This document shows, one piece after another, positions 36,096 to 43,453 of a DNA stretch of 64,000 nt. Each line of letters opens with the position of its first letter. Within the stretch, counting starts at the first letter, position 1. Origin of the DNA: an uncultured Bacteroidaceae bacterium (lineage in GTDB: Bacteria; Bacteroidota; Bacteroidia; Bacteroidales; GCA-2748055); assembly GCA_964479445.1 (NCBI GenBank), contig CAYZMH010000002.1:43367-107366 (forward strand). Reading direction: 5' to 3'. Position numbers and translations under genes: made by a program. Under the pieces are notes generated by a model, which was given only the letters and a program-made list of their open reading frames with translations, did not search any database and was not told where the DNA came from.

Positions 36096-36974
36096 TCAGA
36101 AGAGTCCGTCGGATAGTAATAACTCATATTCGTTATTGAGCTCATCTGTCCAGCCTACCATATAGCGGCTAAATTCACCGATATGCTGATCCATAATATT
36201 CGTTGCATAAGGATCCTGCATAATATCAAAGGGGAATTGCTTACGAGCAAAACGAATTCGTTTTCGATTATTTCGTTCATAGGTTCGATAAAGATCAACA
36301 GCACCGAAGAGGTGTAGAAAATTGTGTGCAATTTCAGCGGGGTATTTATAGCTTACTATTGCAAATTCAATGTCCGCAGTTGTATAGGTATTTACGGCCA
36401 AAGAAATGTCATCTCTGAAATAGTTATTTACGAAAAACATCAGGGCTACGCTTTCGACATTATATTCATCTCTTAAGAAAGCTACGAGCCTTTCTTTGTT
36501 ATCGGGTTTTTTCATTGGAGGAATACCGTCCTTTTCTTTAACATACATAGATTCTCCAACCATCTTTGAAACATAATCTCCCCAACGGTTTAGCGAAGCC
36601 ATTCCTTTTTTTAAATTGGGATCTGTGATAGACTGTTTGACGGTTTCTCTTGGTAGGTTTCTGTTAATGGTTGCATATTCGTTGCCAATATAATAGTCTG
36701 TCTTAATGTTAAGAGTAATATCATTCTTCTCGGCCTGCCCTTCAATCCACCTTTTTGCAACATGAATGGAATCAATCGTTGATAATATATCAAATTCCGT
36801 CCAGGGGTAGGTGGTTCTTGTATCCACAAAAACGAAATATAACAATACATCGTCACGAAGGTCTTTGCAAACATTATTATACCTCGCTTTACTAAAATCT
36901 TTTATGATCGAAGAAGGAGCCAGAAAAAATAGACTGGTAACTATTATAATAAGGATCTTATACTTATGCATCAT
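36096..36974 (-). CDS. hypothetical secreted protein with an HNFLH...GAVDLY motif (degenerate metallopeptidase-like?)
   Basis: Start moved to ATG 36974/36971 (MMHKYKILIIIVTSLFFLAPSS is a signal peptide). The track's longer ORF would overlap nth. The motif AHNFLHLFGAVDLY resembles HExxH...G..D.Y with Glu replaced by Asn. Confidence 0.55.
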   Translation of the reverse strand: MMHKYKILIIIVTSLFFLAPSSIIKDFSKARYNNVCKDLRDDVLLYFVFVDTRTTYPWTEFDILSTIDSIHVAKRWIEGQAEKNDITLNIKTDYYIGNEYATINRNLPRETVKQSITDPNLKKGMASLNRWGDYVSKMVGESMYVKEKDGIPPMKKPDNKERLVAFLRDEYNVESVALMFFVNNYFRDDISLAVNTYTTADIEFAIVSYKYPAEIAHNFLHLFGAVDLYRTYERNNRKRIRFARKQFPFDIMQDPYATNIMDQHIGEFSRYMVGWTDELNNEYELLLSDGLF

Positions 36975-37050
36975 TATAGCAATCTCTTTTAGATGCTTTA
37001 ACAAATGTAATAAAAACTCAATTAATGATAAGAGTATCTTGATATATAGA

Positions 37051-37692
37051 TTATTTGTGTGTTTGGCTGTAATATTTACAAACATCTGTGAGTCCGCATT
37101 TCTCACATTTTGGTTTTCTGGACAAACAAACATATCTCCCGTGAAGAATAAGCCAGTGGTGGGCCTTATGTACCAATTCTTCGGGTATGTATTTGATGAG
37201 TTGCATTTCTGCCTGAAGCGGGTCTTTAGCATGAGTTGTTAAACCAATTCTTGATGCCACCCTGAAAACATGGGTATCTACAGCCATTGCGGGTTTTGAG
37301 AAAGCAACAGATAGGATGACATTAGCTGTTTTTCTGCCAACACCTGGAAGTGTTATCAACTCTTCCAATGAAGAGGGAATTTTATCGTTAAATTGTTCAT
37401 GTACCACCTTTGCCATGCTCACAAGATGATTTGCTTTATTATTAGGGTATGAACAGCTTTTTATTAATTGATATACATCATAAGTTGTTGCTTGAGCAAG
37501 ATCATTTACTCTGGGAAAAAGTTCGAAAAACCCCGGTGTAATCATATTTACACGCTTATCCGTGCATTGTGCTGATAAGATTACTGCTACTATTAATTCA
37601 TAAGGATTATTATATGACAACTCCGTCTCTGCAATAGGCATTTTCTCGGAAAAGTATTGAATCATTCGCTCGAAACGCTCTTTTTTTGTCAT
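37051..37692 (-). CDS. nth: endonuclease III
   Basis: Helix-hairpin-helix motif LPGVGRKTANV, VDTHV, and the C-terminal 4Fe-4S motif C-x6-C-x2-C-x5-C (CLSRKPKCEKCGLTDVC). I prefer the ATG at 37692 because upstream starts overlap or abut a -7 box. Confidence 0.9.
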   Translation of the reverse strand: MTKKERFERMIQYFSEKMPIAETELSYNNPYELIVAVILSAQCTDKRVNMITPGFFELFPRVNDLAQATTYDVYQLIKSCSYPNNKANHLVSMAKVVHEQFNDKIPSSLEELITLPGVGRKTANVILSVAFSKPAMAVDTHVFRVASRIGLTTHAKDPLQAEMQLIKYIPEELVHKAHHWLILHGRYVCLSRKPKCEKCGLTDVCKYYSQTHK

Positions 37693-37710
37693 GCTTTCTA
37701 CTTTACACAT

Positions 37711-37718
37711 CAAATATA
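37711..37718 (-). promoter_or_regulatory. candidate -7 promoter box (TATATTTG on the minus strand) for nth
   Basis: Exact TAnnTTTG match 19 nt upstream of the ATG at 37692. Confidence 0.45.
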
Positions 37719-37867
37719 CATAATCCTATGATCATCGTGACTGCTATTTTCTCATAGAGTAAATCTCTGTAAATTGTTAATTATTTCAATATATTTCAGG
37801 AAAACAGTAAATTATTCCCCTCAAAGTTTAATAAATCATTAAAACCAAGCCTTATTTATTTATGTTT

Positions 37868-37899
37868 TTTGTTTTTTCAAATTATAATAACTACGTTTA
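37868..37899 (+). promoter_or_regulatory. candidate promoter of the aromatic leader/operon (TTTG-N20-TACGTTTA)
   Basis: -33-like TTTG (37868-37871) and an imperfect -7 box TACGTTTA (37892-37899, last G replaced by A), about 59 nt upstream of the leader ATG. Confidence 0.3.
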
Positions 37900-37957
37900 C
37901 CGACACAAATTACTGGTATTCATAAATACATTGTAATTTATCAGAAGAACATTTGTT

Positions 37958-38029
37958 ATGAGCAATTACGGTTACACTTATTATTTTTATTATTTCTTCT
38001 TTGGATCAGGGGAAAAACCGGGATGCTAG
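37958..38029 (+). CDS. aromatic-amino-acid leader peptide (23 aa: MSNYGYTYYFYYFFFGSGEKPGC)
   Basis: ATG...TAG mini-ORF read codon by codon. 6 Tyr and 4 Phe codons fall within 12 consecutive codons (37967-38002). It lies between a candidate promoter and a terminator that abuts pheA. Confidence 0.65.
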   Translation: MSNYGYTYYFYYFFFGSGEKPGC

Positions 38030-38060
38030 GTATTCAAAATATAGTTGGTAAATCCCGGTT
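38016..38060 (+). promoter_or_regulatory. antiterminator pairing of the attenuator
   Basis: aaccgggat (38016-38024, the last codons of the leader ORF) is the exact complement of atcccggtt (38052-38060). That second segment includes 7 nt of the terminator's 5' arm, so the two structures are mutually exclusive. Confidence 0.6.
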
Positions 38061-38078
38061 AAACCGGGATTTTTTATT
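38050..38078 (+). terminator. attenuator terminator immediately upstream of pheA
   Basis: 9-bp stem aaatcccgg/ccgggattt (38050-38058 with 38064-38072) and loop ttaaa. The U-tract tttttatt (38071-38078; its first two T also close the stem) runs into the pheA ATG at 38079. Confidence 0.7.
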
Positions 38079-38915
38079 ATGAAAAGAATTGCAATTCAAG
38101 GTGGTTACGGAGCTTTTCATGAGATAGCAGCTCACTATTATTTTAAGAATGAAGAACTTGAAATTCTTCCGAAAAACACATTCAGAGATATGCTTTCTAC
38201 ATTAAAGAAGCAAAAATCTGAATATGGAATTATGGCAATAGAGAATTCATTGGCCGGCAGTATTCTTCCAAACTACAACTTATTGATGGATACTCCAATG
38301 AACATCATAGGAGAGGTTTATCTCAGGATAAAACAAAACCTCGTAGCCTTGAAAGGAACGAGGGTTGAGGAGTTGAAAGAAGTATATTCTCATCCAATGG
38401 CAATACTCCAATGCACAGAGTTTTTCAATAAATACCCTTCAATCCGTTTGATAGAAAGTGCCGATACTGCACTGAGTGCTAAAGAGATTGCGAATAAAAA
38501 CATAAGATACACGGGTGCAATCTCAAGCAAACTGGCTGCCACAAAGTATGGTCTGGAAATTCTTGCTGCAGGAATTGAAACGAATAAGATGAATTACACA
38601 CGCTTTTTGATTCTAACAGAAAATGGAGGTGCTATATCAAAAAGCAACGTAAATAAAGCCTCTATACACTTTGCACTGGCCCATAAAATCGGATCACTAT
38701 CAAAAATACTTTCAATATTCTCCTTTCATGAGATAAATCTGGCTAAAATACAGTCTATGCCAATTATTGGTAAGGAATGGGAGTATCAGTTTTATGTAGA
38801 TCTGGAGATAGACGATTACGATATGTATCAACGTTCTATAGAAGCAATCAAACCATTTACTTCAGGTTTGGGAATCATGGGAGAGTATGAAAAAGGGAAA
38901 GTGTATTTTGAATAA
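38079..38915 (+). CDS. pheA: prephenate dehydratase (PDT + ACT domains)
   Basis: 278 aa. PDT domain (IAIQGGYGAFHE..., YTRFLIL) and a C-terminal ACT-like regulatory domain. Confidence 0.9.
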   Translation: MKRIAIQGGYGAFHEIAAHYYFKNEELEILPKNTFRDMLSTLKKQKSEYGIMAIENSLAGSILPNYNLLMDTPMNIIGEVYLRIKQNLVALKGTRVEELKEVYSHPMAILQCTEFFNKYPSIRLIESADTALSAKEIANKNIRYTGAISSKLAATKYGLEILAAGIETNKMNYTRFLILTENGGAISKSNVNKASIHFALAHKIGSLSKILSIFSFHEINLAKIQSMPIIGKEWEYQFYVDLEIDDYDMYQRSIEAIKPFTSGLGIMGEYEKGKVYFE

Positions 38916-38927
38916 AATAATTATGTT

Positions 38928-40013
38928 ATGGTGGTAGATGTTCGACTGAAACCATTTGTAAAGGTTGAAATGAGTACTAGAGTTCCAATTCTTCTGGCCG
39001 GACCATGTAGTGCTGAGTCAGAAGAGCAGGTGATGGAAACGGCAAGAGGAGTTGCAAAATTAGGTGTCAAGATTTTCCGGGCAGGAATCTGGAAGCCAAG
39101 AACTCGTCCCAATGCCTTTGAAGGTGTGGGGCCTGAAGGTCTTGGATGGCTTCAGAGAGTTAAGCGGGAACTGGGATTGTTAGTGGCCGTGGAAGTGGCG
39201 AATGTAAAACATGTCTATGAAGCGCTGAAATATGGTGTGGATATTATCTGGATTGGAGCACGAACCACAGCAAACCCATTTGCCGTTCAGGATATAGCTG
39301 ATAGTTTAAAGGGTGTGAATATACCTGTAATGATCAAGAATCCGATCAATCCGGATGTTGATTTGTGGATAGGAGCCATAGAACGTATCAATCATGCAGG
39401 GATTGATCAAATTGCTGCTATTCACAGGGGGTTTTCCAGTCATGAGCAGACGATTTTTAGAAATATTCCGCACTGGCAGGTTCCAATAGAATTGCGCAGA
39501 CGAATCCCTGATTTACCGATCATAACTGATCCAAGTCATATATGTGGGAACAGGGCTTTATTATATGATGTATCTCAGAAAGCAATGGACCTGAATTTCG
39601 ATGGATTGATCATTGAAACTCACAATAATCCGGATAAAGCGTTGAGTGATGCCAAACAACAGCTTACGCCAGAGGGATTAAAAAATCTCCTCGATCGGCT
39701 TATTCTCAGGGACCCGGAAGTGAATGAGGAATTAATGCTTACATTGGCAGAGCTGAGAGATCAGATTGATAAATTGGACGATAAAATAATCAACCTTCTT
39801 GATCAACGTATGCGGGTCTCTGAACAAATAGGTGCCTATAAAAAGGAGAACAATATTACAATTTTGCAGACCAAAAGATGGGATGATATGTTGAGAAGCC
39901 GTCTGAATCTAGGTGCAAAGAAAGGATTGAGCGATGAAATGATTAGCAAAATATTCCGAGCAGTGCATCAGGAATCAATTAATAAACAAACCCAAATCAT
40001 GAATGAGGACTAA
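38928..40013 (+). CDS. bifunctional 3-deoxy-7-phosphoheptulonate (DAHP) synthase type I-beta / chorismate mutase (AroQ at C-terminus)
   Basis: KDO8PS-like DAHPS core (LLAGPCSAES, FRAGIWKPRTRP.AFEG, DPSH) followed by a type-II chorismate mutase helix pattern (LR..ID.LD..I..LL..R...S..IG.YK). Confidence 0.85.
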   Translation: MVVDVRLKPFVKVEMSTRVPILLAGPCSAESEEQVMETARGVAKLGVKIFRAGIWKPRTRPNAFEGVGPEGLGWLQRVKRELGLLVAVEVANVKHVYEALKYGVDIIWIGARTTANPFAVQDIADSLKGVNIPVMIKNPINPDVDLWIGAIERINHAGIDQIAAIHRGFSSHEQTIFRNIPHWQVPIELRRRIPDLPIITDPSHICGNRALLYDVSQKAMDLNFDGLIIETHNNPDKALSDAKQQLTPEGLKNLLDRLILRDPEVNEELMLTLAELRDQIDKLDDKIINLLDQRMRVSEQIGAYKKENNITILQTKRWDDMLRSRLNLGAKKGLSDEMISKIFRAVHQESINKQTQIMNED

Positions 40014-40019
40014 TAACTC

Positions 40020-41048
40020 ATGGTGAAGCTAATACTGCATACCAAAGATCAGAAATCAACGATCCTAATTGGGAAAGATATTTTTTCAAAAATACAGCAA
40101 CTTCCTTATCATAACTTGTTTTTATTGATTGATGAAGAGGTGAATATTTTACACCATGAAAAATTCTCTTCATTTAATAAACTTATTATCCCCCGTGGAG
40201 AGACAAACAAAAATTTAGGCACAGTAGAGAATGTTGGAAGACAGTTGATCGATAGAGGAGCAGACAGATCTTCATTTATTGTAGGAATTGGAGGGGGATT
40301 GGCTTGTGATATTGCAGGATTTACAGCATCTGTATATATGCGAGGGGTCCGTTTCGGTTTTATTGCCACAACACTTCTTGCACAAGTTGACGCAAGTGTA
40401 GGTGGGAAAAATGGTGTGAACCTGGATGGATATAAAAATATGATAGGGGTTATTCGTCAACCTGATTTTATATGGTGTGATACTACTCTTCTGTCAACAC
40501 TTCCTCAAAAAGAATGGTTATCAGGTTTGTCGGAGATAGTTAAATATGGTGCTATCAGGCAGAAAAGTCTTTTTCAATATATGGAGAAGAATAACCATCT
40601 ATTGAAAGATCAAAATAGCGAGATAATTGAGCACCTGGTATCAGAATCAGCGCGTACCAAGGTGGCTATTGTTGAGTCAGATGAGCAAGAAAATGGAATT
40701 CGCAAATTATTGAATTTTGGTCACACCCTTGGCCATGCAATTGAACGATTATCCGGACTTCTGCATGGAGAAGCTGTTAGCATAGGAATGGTTCTGGCCT
40801 CAAGGCTGTCTTTCAATATGGGTTATTTGAAAATCGATGAAGTGGATAGACTGGAATCATTGTTAAAACGTATAGGATTACCCGTTACAACCTCTATTGA
40901 TCACAAGCAATTGTTTGAGACACTGCAAAAAGATAAAAAAAGACAGGGAGAGGAAATGCATTTCATTCTATTAAAAGGTATAGGGGATGCTTTTATAAAA
41001 AAAATAAAACTGCCTGATCTAAAGGCTTTCATTTATGATCTGTATTAG
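40020..41048 (+). CDS. aroB: 3-dehydroquinate synthase
   Basis: GGGLACDIAGF, SVGGKNGVNL and the metal-binding GHTLGHAIE...HGEAV motifs. Confidence 0.9.
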   Translation: MVKLILHTKDQKSTILIGKDIFSKIQQLPYHNLFLLIDEEVNILHHEKFSSFNKLIIPRGETNKNLGTVENVGRQLIDRGADRSSFIVGIGGGLACDIAGFTASVYMRGVRFGFIATTLLAQVDASVGGKNGVNLDGYKNMIGVIRQPDFIWCDTTLLSTLPQKEWLSGLSEIVKYGAIRQKSLFQYMEKNNHLLKDQNSEIIEHLVSESARTKVAIVESDEQENGIRKLLNFGHTLGHAIERLSGLLHGEAVSIGMVLASRLSFNMGYLKIDEVDRLESLLKRIGLPVTTSIDHKQLFETLQKDKKRQGEEMHFILLKGIGDAFIKKIKLPDLKAFIYDLY

Positions 41049-41667
41049 CATTGGAGATCTGGATAGGATCAACGAGGTAAATCAAATTTTACCTCCTGTG
41101 GTGGAACTGCGACTGGATTTAATCAAACATGATCCGGAAAAAGTTTTATCACTTCTTGATCCATCAATAACTGTTATTGGAACATTCAGGAAAGAAAATG
41201 AGGATCAATCTCAACAGCGAGAGCAATTAAAGAAATGTATGGACTACGGTGTTCAATATATTGATCTCGAAGTTGATAACTCTACTGGATATCTTGAAGA
41301 ATTAGTGGAGTACGCCCATAGCAGAAATGTTGAAGTCATTATGTCATGGCATAATTATTTTACTACTCCTGAAAGGGATCAATTGAATAAGATGTTAGCA
41401 ATGTGTTATTCCAAAGGTGGAGATATTGCAAAAATTGCCTGTATGGTAACCAATGAGCAACAACTAGCACGTCTTGTTTCACTCTATGAAGTGGAAGGCA
41501 GAAAAGTTATTGTAGGAATGGGAGAAATGGGCAAGATTTCCAGGTTTTCTGCAATTTATTATGGTGCAGAATTTACTTTTGCAGCCGTGTCAGAAAATCG
41601 ATTAACAGCACCAGGGCAACTAACCTATAAACAAATTTTGGAACTAAAGGAAATATTTGAGTCATGA
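41035..41667 (+). CDS. aroD: type I 3-dehydroquinate dehydratase
   Basis: VELRLD motif near the N-terminus and the MGE.GKISR Schiff-base lysine region. Overlaps aroB by 14 nt. Confidence 0.8.
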   Translation: MICISIGDLDRINEVNQILPPVVELRLDLIKHDPEKVLSLLDPSITVIGTFRKENEDQSQQREQLKKCMDYGVQYIDLEVDNSTGYLEELVEYAHSRNVEVIMSWHNYFTTPERDQLNKMLAMCYSKGGDIAKIACMVTNEQQLARLVSLYEVEGRKVIVGMGEMGKISRFSAIYYGAEFTFAAVSENRLTAPGQLTYKQILELKEIFES

Positions 41668-42677
41668 ATAGTTTTGGAAAATTTTTCCGAGTAAGTATAT
41701 ATGGGGAATCTCATGGTTTGTCACTTGGAGTCATTGTAGATGGTTGTCCGTCTGGGATACCTCTGGAGCAATCAGATTTTGAACATGATCTTACACGACG
41801 AAAAAGTGGTGCCAGAGGCACAACACCAAGACGGGAGGATGATATTCCAATGTTAAAATCGGGAGTATTTGAAGGGTATACTACCGGAGCTCCTGTACAT
41901 ATTCAATTTGAGAATAAAAATACACGTTCAAGGGATTATACAGAACTTCGGAAAACTCCCCGACCAGGTCATGCTGATTTTACAGCTACAGCAAAATATG
42001 GAGGCTACGAAGATTATCGCGGAGGGGGACACTTTTCAGGACGTCTTACACTGGGATTGGTAGCTGCAGGAACAATTGCAAAAAAAATAATTGTACCATC
42101 AAAAGTCGAGAGTATTATAAAAGAAGTAGGAGGAAAAGAGGATATTCAGAATGCAGTTATGGAAGCTTTAGAAAACCAGGATTCTATCGGAGGAATCATT
42201 GAATGCACAGTAAATCAATTGCCAGTGGGTTTAGGGGAACCCTTCTTTGATTCATTTGAATCAGTAATGAGCCATATGGCATTTTCTATCCCGGCCATTA
42301 AGGGAATTGAGTTTGGTGCAGGTTTCCAAGCAGCCAGCATGAAAGGAAGTGAACACAATGATAATTTTATCACAAAAAACGGAAACACCGAAACCAACCA
42401 TGCAGGAGGTATAAATGGTGGGATAACAAATGGTAATCCGGTTATTTTTAGGGTCGCAGTGAAACCTACTTCCAGTACACATCAATCACAGAGAACGCTG
42501 AATTTTAAAACAGGTAAGCTCACAGATCTCCAGGTTGAGGGCAGGCACGATACCTGTATAGCTCTTCGTGTACCCGTGGTACTTGAAGCCGCTACTGCTA
42601 TTGTCACTGCAGACCTGATGCTACAGAGTCATCATATTTCCAGAATATTAAAACCCAAAAACGACAAAATAATATGA
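41664..42677 (+). CDS. aroC: chorismate synthase
   Basis: GESHG, RPGHAD and GGG.SGR motifs. 4-nt ATGA overlap with aroD. Confidence 0.9.
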   Translation: MNSFGKFFRVSIYGESHGLSLGVIVDGCPSGIPLEQSDFEHDLTRRKSGARGTTPRREDDIPMLKSGVFEGYTTGAPVHIQFENKNTRSRDYTELRKTPRPGHADFTATAKYGGYEDYRGGGHFSGRLTLGLVAAGTIAKKIIVPSKVESIIKEVGGKEDIQNAVMEALENQDSIGGIIECTVNQLPVGLGEPFFDSFESVMSHMAFSIPAIKGIEFGAGFQAASMKGSEHNDNFITKNGNTETNHAGGINGGITNGNPVIFRVAVKPTSSTHQSQRTLNFKTGKLTDLQVEGRHDTCIALRVPVVLEAATAIVTADLMLQSHHISRILKPKNDKII

Positions 42678-43453
42678 GAATTGTTATTCTTGGTGCAGGA
42701 AACATGGGATCATGGTTGGTGGAATCACTATGCCTTGATTACGAAGTAGGAGTCTATGATGCCGATCGTTCCAGGTTGAAGTATTTTTTTAATTCACGTA
42801 AGTTTCTATATTTAGAAGAAATATTTGATTTTACGCCCGATATAGTTATCAACGCAGTAAACCTTGAGAAGACAATAACTGCTTTTGAAGAAGTATTACC
42901 CTATCTTCCCGGTGATTGTATACTTGCTGATATTACTTCTGTGAAAAAAGGTTTAGCAGATTATTATAAGAATATAAACAGGCCTTTTGTATCAACTCAT
43001 CCTATGTTTGGTCCTACTTTCGGGGATGTGAAAAATCTACAGGATGAGCATGCAATAATCATATCAGAGTCAGATAAAAAGGGGGCTGATTTTTTCAGGG
43101 AGTTTTATGATAATCTTGGGTTAACAATTCATGAATATTCATTTGATCAACATGATCAAACAATCGCTTATTCCTTATCGCTTCCTTTTTCATCCTCATT
43201 GGTCTTTGCATCTTGTATGAAGAAACAGGATGCGCCAGGAACTACATTCCGTAAACATATGGTTATCACAGAAGGTTTGTTGTCTGAGGATGATTATCTT
43301 CTATCCGAAATATTGCTTAGTCCTTATAGCCTTGAACAGGTTGAAAATGTCAGAGATCAGTTAAATGATCTGATCCGTATAATTAAGAAGGGTGATAGCG
43401 ATGAATTTAAGTCGCTATTTGAAAAGCTGCGCCAAAATATTGGAATGCATTAA
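42674..43453 (+). CDS. tyrA: prephenate dehydrogenase
   Basis: NAD-binding ILGAGNMGSW and the catalytic region HPMFGP. 4-nt overlap with aroC. Confidence 0.8.
   Translation: MRIVILGAGNMGSWLVESLCLDYEVGVYDADRSRLKYFFNSRKFLYLEEIFDFTPDIVINAVNLEKTITAFEEVLPYLPGDCILADITSVKKGLADYYKNINRPFVSTHPMFGPTFGDVKNLQDEHAIIISESDKKGADFFREFYDNLGLTIHEYSFDQHDQTIAYSLSLPFSSSLVFASCMKKQDAPGTTFRKHMVITEGLLSEDDYLLSEILLSPYSLEQVENVRDQLNDLIRIIKKGDSDEFKSLFEKLRQNIGMH

Follow-up and report, generated by a model that had tools for sequence, protein, structure and literature searches.

A probable tyrosine- and phenylalanine-sensing leader-peptide attenuator upstream of the pheA-tyrA operon in an uncultured Bacteroidaceae bacterium and related Bacteroidales

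Described attenuators and the pheA leader

Control of prephenate dehydratase (pheA) through a leader open reading frame (ORF) that carries regulatory codons and is followed by mutually exclusive hairpins is known from pheL-pheA of Escherichia coli (Rfam Phe_leader; PMC3082878). Here we describe an element with the same features at 37958-38078 of a 64,000-nucleotide (nt) stretch from an uncultured Bacteroidaceae bacterium (contig CAYZMH010000002.1; this whole stretch is referred to as the window), where it lies directly upstream of an operon that begins with pheA and ends with tyrA. We consider it very probable that this element is a functional ribosome-mediated attenuator which senses Tyr and Phe and controls pheA-aroG/CM-aroB-aroD-aroC-tyrA, a verdict supported by the conservation of the element, the covariation of its helices and its geometry.

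A leader-peptide attenuation element has been reported in the same phylum upstream of Flavobacterium psychrophilum pheA-aspC3 (Guérin et al. 2021, ISME Commun, PMC9723704, Table S7, SI D9). For this element a Phe/Tyr/Trp-rich peptide was described, terminator and antiterminator hairpins were drawn and the transcription start site (TSS) was mapped, and its read-through was found to depend on the growth condition with maximal operon expression in minimal medium (PMC9723704). Both this element and that of the window are located directly upstream of pheA and have a leader without a Shine-Dalgarno (SD) sequence in which Phe and Tyr codons are interleaved (MNTNNTFYSNNSFYFYWNIGRDCYMVI). When our own procedure was applied to the F. 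psychrophilum sequence, the ORF was found to span a GGGAUUGU strand, 13 nt after the last aromatic codon, which pairs with the 5' arm of the terminator; this antiterminator strand is of the GGGAU type and, like that of the window, is traversed by the ORF. The core of the F. psychrophilum terminator is CCCG...CGGG and its T-tract is long; a CCC...GGG core followed by a T-tract is likewise found in the window. The two elements differ in class (Flavobacteriia for F. psychrophilum, Bacteroidia for the window), in the single Trp codon of the F. psychrophilum leader and in the position of its terminator, which lies further from pheA. The F. psychrophilum element also has transcriptomic support whereas the window element is known from sequence alone.

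An earlier note on this DNA had presented attenuation by leader peptides as little characterised in Bacteroidota. The phylum is less uncharted in this respect than the note implied, given the F. psychrophilum element published in 2021 and the remark, ten years before it, on a potential use of a pheL gene by Bacteroides (Gurvich et al. 2011, PMC3082878). Small ORFs reminiscent of leader peptides were also mentioned, without detail, in long 5' untranslated regions (UTRs) of B. thetaiotaomicron (Ryan et al. 2020, PMC7366714). The element is known in kind: its mechanism is a textbook one that was already predicted for pheA in this phylum, and the understanding of attenuation is left unchanged by it.

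The E. coli pheL leader differs from that of the window in having Phe codons only, an SD sequence and a region 1:2 hairpin, as neither an SD sequence nor a region 1 is present in the window. Homology between the two in sequence or structure was undetectable, and Phe_leader was unmatched at E<=10. Unlike E. coli pheA, the regulated operon in the window adds common shikimate-pathway genes and tyrA; in E. coli, tyrA is controlled separately via TyrR. Leaders that respond to several amino acids are known from other enterobacterial operons, the thr leader sensing Thr and Ile and the ilvGMEDA leader sensing Ile, Leu and Val. The window leader resembles these multivalent attenuators in the interleaving of codons for several end products, whereas the amino acids are different ones and there is no homology to the window element.

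No Rfam family was matched at gathering level anywhere in the window, and no T-box was found at E<=10 in 37000-39000. The best Rfam match was to Trp_leader (RF00513) with 23.6 bits against a gathering threshold of 41, and it is due to the terminator hairpin and U-tract. This match was rejected together with those to MicC and SpF36, as all three are below threshold and draw on the terminator alone. The E. coli trp leader is alike in mechanism, whereas the window has neither Trp codons nor the 1:2 pause/anti-antiterminator hairpin. The trp leader also behaves otherwise when it is untranslated, since its region 1:2 pairing then gives termination.

Leader ORF, alternative hairpins and their conservation

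The pheL-like leader ORF spans 37958-38029 on the forward strand and consists of 23 codons followed by TAG, with MSNYGYTYYFYYFFFGSGEKPGC as its predicted peptide. Codons 4-15 (37967-38002, forward strand) form the regulatory run YGYTYYFYYFFF, in which six Tyr codons (4 TAT, 2 TAC) and four Phe codons (2 TTT, 2 TTC) were found among the twelve, while Trp codons are absent from the whole leader. When all ATG-initiated ORFs with a length of 8-45 codons were scanned on the two strands of the window, this ORF proved to be the only one with 8 aromatic residues per 8-codon window and the only aromatic-rich one having a terminator-like motif downstream, and no further leader-peptide candidates were found elsewhere in the window.

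The final sense codons of the leader contain the antiterminator strand AACCGGGAT (38016-38024), which is the exact complement of ATCCCGGTT at 38052-38060. With the following nucleotides 38025-38029, which pair with 38045-38049, this strand extends over 38016-38029 on the forward strand. Its partner is also the 5' arm of a terminator hairpin, AAATCCCGGT-TAA-ACCGGGATTT (regions 3 and 4), that was located by pattern scan at 38050-38072 on the forward strand with a folding energy of -13.4 kcal/mol. Ten pairs, of which five are G-C, and a loop of 3 nt make up this hairpin. The sequence after it, TTTATTATG, ends in the pheA ATG; the T-tract TTTTTTATT (38070-38078, forward strand) adjoins this ATG at 38079. 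The hairpin was the one terminator-like site found by the pattern scan in 37500-38300, compared with 0.3 from shuffles.

Folded alone, the antiterminator helix (38016-38060) has an energy of -18.8 kcal/mol compared with -13.4 kcal/mol for the terminator, and the unconstrained minimum free energy (MFE) structure of 37940-38090 holds the antiterminator rather than the terminator. The nascent RNA that lies 3' of the last Phe codon (38013-38062) folds with -19.8 kcal/mol, whereas dinucleotide shuffles of the upstream part average -7.6 kcal/mol (z = -5.3). A small hairpin (37993-38000 with 38008-38015, forward strand) that stacks on the antiterminator was observed in the MFE folds only, and on this modelling it might serve as a pause element or else as an accessory helix. 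What the earlier note had read from the letters was thus found in place: the Tyr/Phe-rich leader with its run of six Tyr and four Phe codons, the complementarity between 38016-38024 and 38052-38060, and the terminator hairpin whose U-tract runs into the pheA ATG. Its statement that the regulatory codons match the end products of the operon, with no Trp codon, agrees with the presence of both pheA and tyrA, and the folding comparison that it had proposed returned an alternative pairing that is competitive.

The conservation of the element was studied in 80 loci of uncultured Bacteroidales metagenome-assembled genomes (MAGs), taking one genome per species, in which pheA is 64-78% identical to that of the window. 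Sufficiently long upstream regions were available for 76 loci, and these were scored over 450 nt upstream of pheA for mini-ORFs with an ATG start and at least 6 Tyr/Phe per 8 codons. Such a mini-ORF was found in 71 of the 76 regions, compared with none of 380 dinucleotide shuffles and one of the 76 reverse complements. Among all 81 sequences (80 loci and the window), Tyr/Phe-rich mini-ORFs occur in 78, and two of the three sequences that have none carry less than 170 nt of upstream DNA. Of the 78 aromatic runs, which show 50 distinct orders, 77 have two or more Tyr codons together with two or more Phe codons, while the leader peptides range from 14 to 45 residues among the relatives and their flanking residues vary freely. 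As the order of the run and its flanks are variable and the Tyr/Phe content is kept, selection appears to act on codon content and not on the sequence of the peptide. All 78 leaders, that of the window included, are followed on their 3' side by a G+C-rich hairpin with a T-tract (-9 to -22 kcal/mol), which in 77 relatives ends 11-198 nt, typically 20-100 nt, before pheA.

Both alternative helices were then assessed on a structure-independent MAFFT alignment of 76 sequences and 132 columns (alignment A1), which extends from the last aromatic codon to the tail of the terminator. Three blocks, xCGGGA, GTCCCGG and xCGGGAC, were observed in register. The terminator helix is paired in 86% of the cells with 106 double-change cells, and the antiterminator helix (columns 33-40 with 92-99) in 80% of the cells with 41 double-change cells; for neither helix did any of 500 shuffles match these values. 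Sliding the partners by 1-3 columns reduces the pairing to 28-60% (28-53% for the antiterminator). Examples of arm pairs that covary are AACCCGCC with GGCGGG, GUCCCAAU with GUUGGGAU, GGCCCUG with CAGGG and UCCCGAU with AUCGGGG. A cross-locus permutation of antiterminator strands against terminator arms gave -11.8 vs -9.7 kcal/mol, with 10 of the 76 loci below 5%; this contrast is weak because the CCC/GGG core is nearly invariant, and the column-wise covariation counts were used instead. The ortholog alignment that the earlier note had suggested as a check therefore speaks for the element, as mini-ORF and hairpins are kept in the relatives and both helices covary. The same alignment could serve as the seed of an RNA-family model, which is absent from Rfam.

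The spacing between the aromatic run and the antiterminator strand is also conserved. Counted from the first base of the last aromatic codon, this strand begins at a distance of 13-21 nt (mode 17) in the relatives and of 17 nt in the window. Its position relative to the leader's stop codon, on the other hand, ranges from -34 to +11 among the relatives, and since the distance from the run is fixed while that from the stop codon varies, the conserved ruler counts from the stalling site. A ribosome whose A site holds the last regulatory codon should shield about 12 nt on the downstream side, which would leave the strand barely free, and the 17-nt distance between stall site and antiterminator amounts to a direct and falsifiable prediction on the ribosome footprint. 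Two layouts of the ORF were observed. In most relatives the stop codon is located three codons past the run, and the strand, which then lies beyond the ORF, is masked by the terminating ribosome. The ORF of the window, like that of a dozen relatives, runs through the antiterminator strand. A ribosome beyond the aromatic run masks the antiterminator strand in both layouts.

The effect of ribosome position was computed with a nascent-RNA model in which only the RNA 3' of the ribosome, through the terminator loop, was folded. In this model the 5' arm of the terminator is paired upstream (P>0.5) in 75 of the 76 loci when the ribosome is placed at the last aromatic codon, as against 3 of the 76 when it is placed at the stop. 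For the window, the probability of the terminator was 0.02-0.16 with the ribosome on the aromatic codons and 0.91-0.93 with the ribosome on TAG. Equilibrium folding of full-length leaders with masked ribosome footprints was also tried and was dropped for nascent-RNA folding; it returned a terminator probability of about 0.9 in every state for the relatives, and in the window it produced an artefact in the form of pairing across the ribosome (P=0.80 at the last Phe codon). As the switch is visible only in nascent RNA, before the 3' arm of the terminator exists, the choice between the hairpins would be a kinetic one.

No region 1 was found in the window, where in the absence of a ribosome the probability that region 2 pairs upstream is 0.00 and that it pairs with the terminator arm is 0.98. 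Region 1:2 pairing was predicted in 28 of the 76 relatives. On these folds, the window element should be a three-segment attenuator with read-through as its default when the leader is not translated.

Proposed switch and alternative explanations

A putative promoter of the Bacteroidota type precedes the leader on the forward strand, with a -33 TTTG (37868-37871), a 20-nt spacer and the -7 box TACGTTTA (37892-37899), which matches TAnnTTTG with one mismatch. The block TTTG-N20-TACGTTTA shows the highest conservation within the spacer when the window is compared with L014, the closest relative in its leader; on this basis the TSS would lie near 37905 and the 5' UTR would measure about 53 nt. In the relatives, exact TAnnTTTG boxes are concentrated at 13-31 nt before the leader ATG; this points to short 5' UTRs in these loci and agrees with the 5' UTRs of 20 nt (pheA) and 15 nt (hisG) of the F. 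psychrophilum leaders (PMC9723704). Another one-mismatch match to TAnnTTTG, AACATTTG at 37948-37955, ends 3 nt before the leader ATG of the window; it was rejected as the promoter of the leader because it is too near, and the TSS would fall in or just past the ATG. A scan for sigma-70 promoters was uninformative (4 sites vs 5.1 expected), this being the wrong promoter type for the phylum.

No SD-like core was found upstream of the leader ATG in the window, and one is present in a single leader out of 78. The leader ATGs show an enrichment of A at -3 (58% vs 33% background) and also at -9 to -12, which resembles the Kozak-like pattern reported for Bacteroidota. The locus offers a compact, sequence-defined test case for the coupling of translation and transcription in a phylum that initiates without SD pairing.

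From the sequence elements, their conservation, the covariation of both helices and the conserved spacing, we propose a model that joins translation of the leader ORF, stalling, a kinetic choice between the hairpins and a response to amino acids in vivo. Transcription would start inside the 365-bp spacer upstream of pheA, probably near 37905, and a ribosome would initiate without SD pairing at AUG 37958 and translate the 23-codon ORF. Under scarcity of charged tRNA-Tyr or tRNA-Phe, the ribosome would stall within 37967-38002 with a footprint that ends at about +12 nt, short of 38016, and the free 38016-38029 could pair with 38045-38060 once this segment is transcribed. The resulting antiterminator (about -19 kcal/mol) would sequester the 5' arm of the terminator and allow RNA polymerase to continue into pheA. 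With both tRNAs charged, the ribosome would pass 38016-38026 to TAG 38027 and mask the antiterminator strand, whereupon the hairpin 38050-38072 and its U-tract would form and transcription would stop 1-6 nt before the pheA AUG. Because the Tyr and Phe codons are interleaved, a shortage of either end product would de-attenuate the whole operon (multivalent attenuation). For the translation of the leader and the response to charged tRNA in vivo, indirect support comes from the F. psychrophilum transcriptome. The two-state model advanced in the earlier note, in which a stalled ribosome gives read-through and a ribosome at the stop codon gives termination, is in this way supported by conservation, by the covariation of both helices, by the fixed spacing of about 17 nt and by folding at defined ribosome positions. 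Such an attenuator accounts for the 365-bp gap and gives the aromatic operon a concrete regulatory logic. Its interest is modest and lies in a joint sensing of Tyr and Phe that fits a pheA...tyrA operon, in a regulatory ORF without SD, in the missing region 1 and in the 17-nt ruler.

Several points weigh against this model. Equilibrium folds of full-length leaders favour the terminator in most relatives at any ribosome position, and the switch as modelled rests on the usual assumption about the kinetic order of folding. The contrast between stalled and stop positions is partly trivial because more free upstream RNA pairs more, and shuffled upstream sequence already pairs about 57% of the terminator arm compared with 77% observed. 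As there is no region 1, an untranslated leader would read through, and the antiterminator could re-form once the ribosome releases. At the start of the leader, an exact TAnnTTTG box was not found 13-31 nt upstream of the window ATG, the promoter and TSS given above being putative, and the RNA around the leader AUG does not stand out as unstructured (mean unpaired probability 0.47 vs 0.46 overall). Finally, the support for this organism and for all the Bacteroidales studied is computational.

Other explanations of the locus have to be set against the same observations. The hairpins might act chiefly on the translation of pheA, with the terminator hairpin occluding an SD-less landing zone and the leader ORF setting the efficiency, alone or alongside attenuation. 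The geometry of the window is in keeping with this idea: the stem ends at 38072, 6 nt before AUG 38079, and the accessibility of the 20 nt upstream of the AUG differs between the alternative folds, with the antiterminator leaving 38061-38078 single-stranded. The proximity to the start codon is however not conserved, given the distances of 11-198 nt between terminator and pheA in 77 relatives, and the T-tract kept after every hairpin is the mark of a transcription terminator and not of a sequestering hairpin, so that we regard control chiefly through pheA translation as improbable. As the terminator of the window adjoins the pheA AUG, the same switch could nevertheless also gate the translation of pheA. 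Somewhat less probable still is a trans-acting factor that sets the switch without stalling, be it a protein of the TRAP/PyrR type, an uncharged tRNA in the manner of a T-box or a small molecule, with the Tyr/Phe ORF being incidental or merely T-rich. T-boxes do regulate Tyr/Phe genes in Firmicutes, the leader has no upstream SD and the translation of its ORF is a deduction. Against these stand the absence of a T-box (at E up to 10) or of any other Rfam family at gathering level, the retention, in 71 of 76 loci compared with 0 of 380 shuffles, of an ATG, a frame and a stop that enclose the Tyr/Phe run, and the start of the conserved 17-nt ruler at the last aromatic codon. Alignment A1 moreover shows no conserved sequence outside the helices that would be able to form a ligand pocket.

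Two further explanations concern the ORF. An aromatic micropeptide that acts in trans, with the hairpin being merely the terminator of its own transcript, would explain why the ORF is conserved and would have a precedent in the trans roles of some leader peptides such as peTrpL in Sinorhizobium. What is kept of the peptide is however only the composition of the run, as its order, its length (14-45 residues) and its flanks vary, and the element always lies directly upstream of pheA and always has an antiterminator that overlaps the terminator; we judge this explanation to be highly improbable. That the ORF arose by chance in an AT-rich spacer, with a stray hairpin beside it, might be suggested by the GC content of the window (39.6%), where T/A-rich tracts are readily read as TAT and TTT codons. 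The shuffle, reverse-complement and whole-window controls, the conservation in 78 loci and the covariation of both helices effectively refute it, and we assign it a practically negligible probability. Ribosome-mediated attenuation is accordingly the explanation that we retain.

Variation among the relatives and the gene neighbourhood

Tandem attenuator units were observed in at least 14 of the 78 related loci (L053, L004, L036, L040, L042, L046, L047, L048, L052, L054, L059, L061, L067 and L068), where two complete sets of leader and terminator are found upstream of pheA. A mixed Tyr/Phe leader ORF and a hairpin with a T-tract are present separately in each unit, as in L053 (2684-2957), where the leader at 2684-2744 and the terminator at 2774-2798 form the first unit and the leader at 2830-2917 and the terminator at 2926-2957 form the second. 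The window has a single unit.

A Trp codon was found beside the Tyr/Phe run in 14 of the 78 leaders (for example FWYFFYFYFF and TWYYYFFFF). As the operon includes common shikimate-pathway genes, some lineages may thus add an input from Trp. In one locus, L021 (2300-3000), the terminator occupies its usual place, 23-41 nt before pheA, and the scan upstream of it gave no ATG mini-ORF with an aromatic run; the start might be a codon other than ATG, or a mutation or an error of assembly might be responsible.

The relatives and the window may together represent an uncurated attenuator family that extends across Bacteroidota and arose independently of gammaproteobacterial pheL, being characterised by joint sensing of Tyr and Phe, the lack of an SD sequence, the frequent lack of a region 1 and a tandem arrangement in about one fifth of the relatives. 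We find this broader interpretation plausible, although we stop a little short of calling it probable. If it is true, the tandem copies would sharpen the response, as tandem riboswitches do.

The regulated operon occupies 38079-43453 on the forward strand, and its ORFs are densely packed with some of them overlapping. According to NCBIfam/Pfam assignments, its first gene is pheA (38079-38915, forward strand), followed on the same strand by a DAHP synthase/chorismate mutase fusion (aroG/CM, 38928-40013), aroB (40020-41048), aroD (41035-41667), aroC (41664-42677) and tyrA (42674-43453), which encodes prephenate dehydrogenase. On the other side of the 365-bp spacer lies nth (endonuclease III; 37051-37713, reverse strand), which is divergent from pheA. 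Since nth is divergent, the terminator at 38050-38072 has no upstream gene to serve and can work only on transcripts that are initiated in the spacer. Genes for tRNA or tmRNA were absent across the whole window.

Four metagenome contigs (L081-L084: ERZ27257079, ERZ27257105, ERZ27257087 and JGI 3300007723) carry an identical pheA protein and a nearly identical leader region, and the leader ORF is not called as a gene in any of the four. Two single-nucleotide polymorphisms (SNPs) were found among their leader regions, namely 37928 A>C, which falls in the putative 5' UTR, and AAT>AAG in leader codon 3. Being only two and neither of them inside a helix, these SNPs leave the contigs, which are of the same species, uninformative on strain variation.

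A mechanical ORF finder also listed a 378-residue ORF at 36096-37232 on the reverse strand. This ORF had no match in Pfam or NCBIfam and overlaps the 3' end of nth by about 180 nt, and its real start is probably located further downstream than listed.

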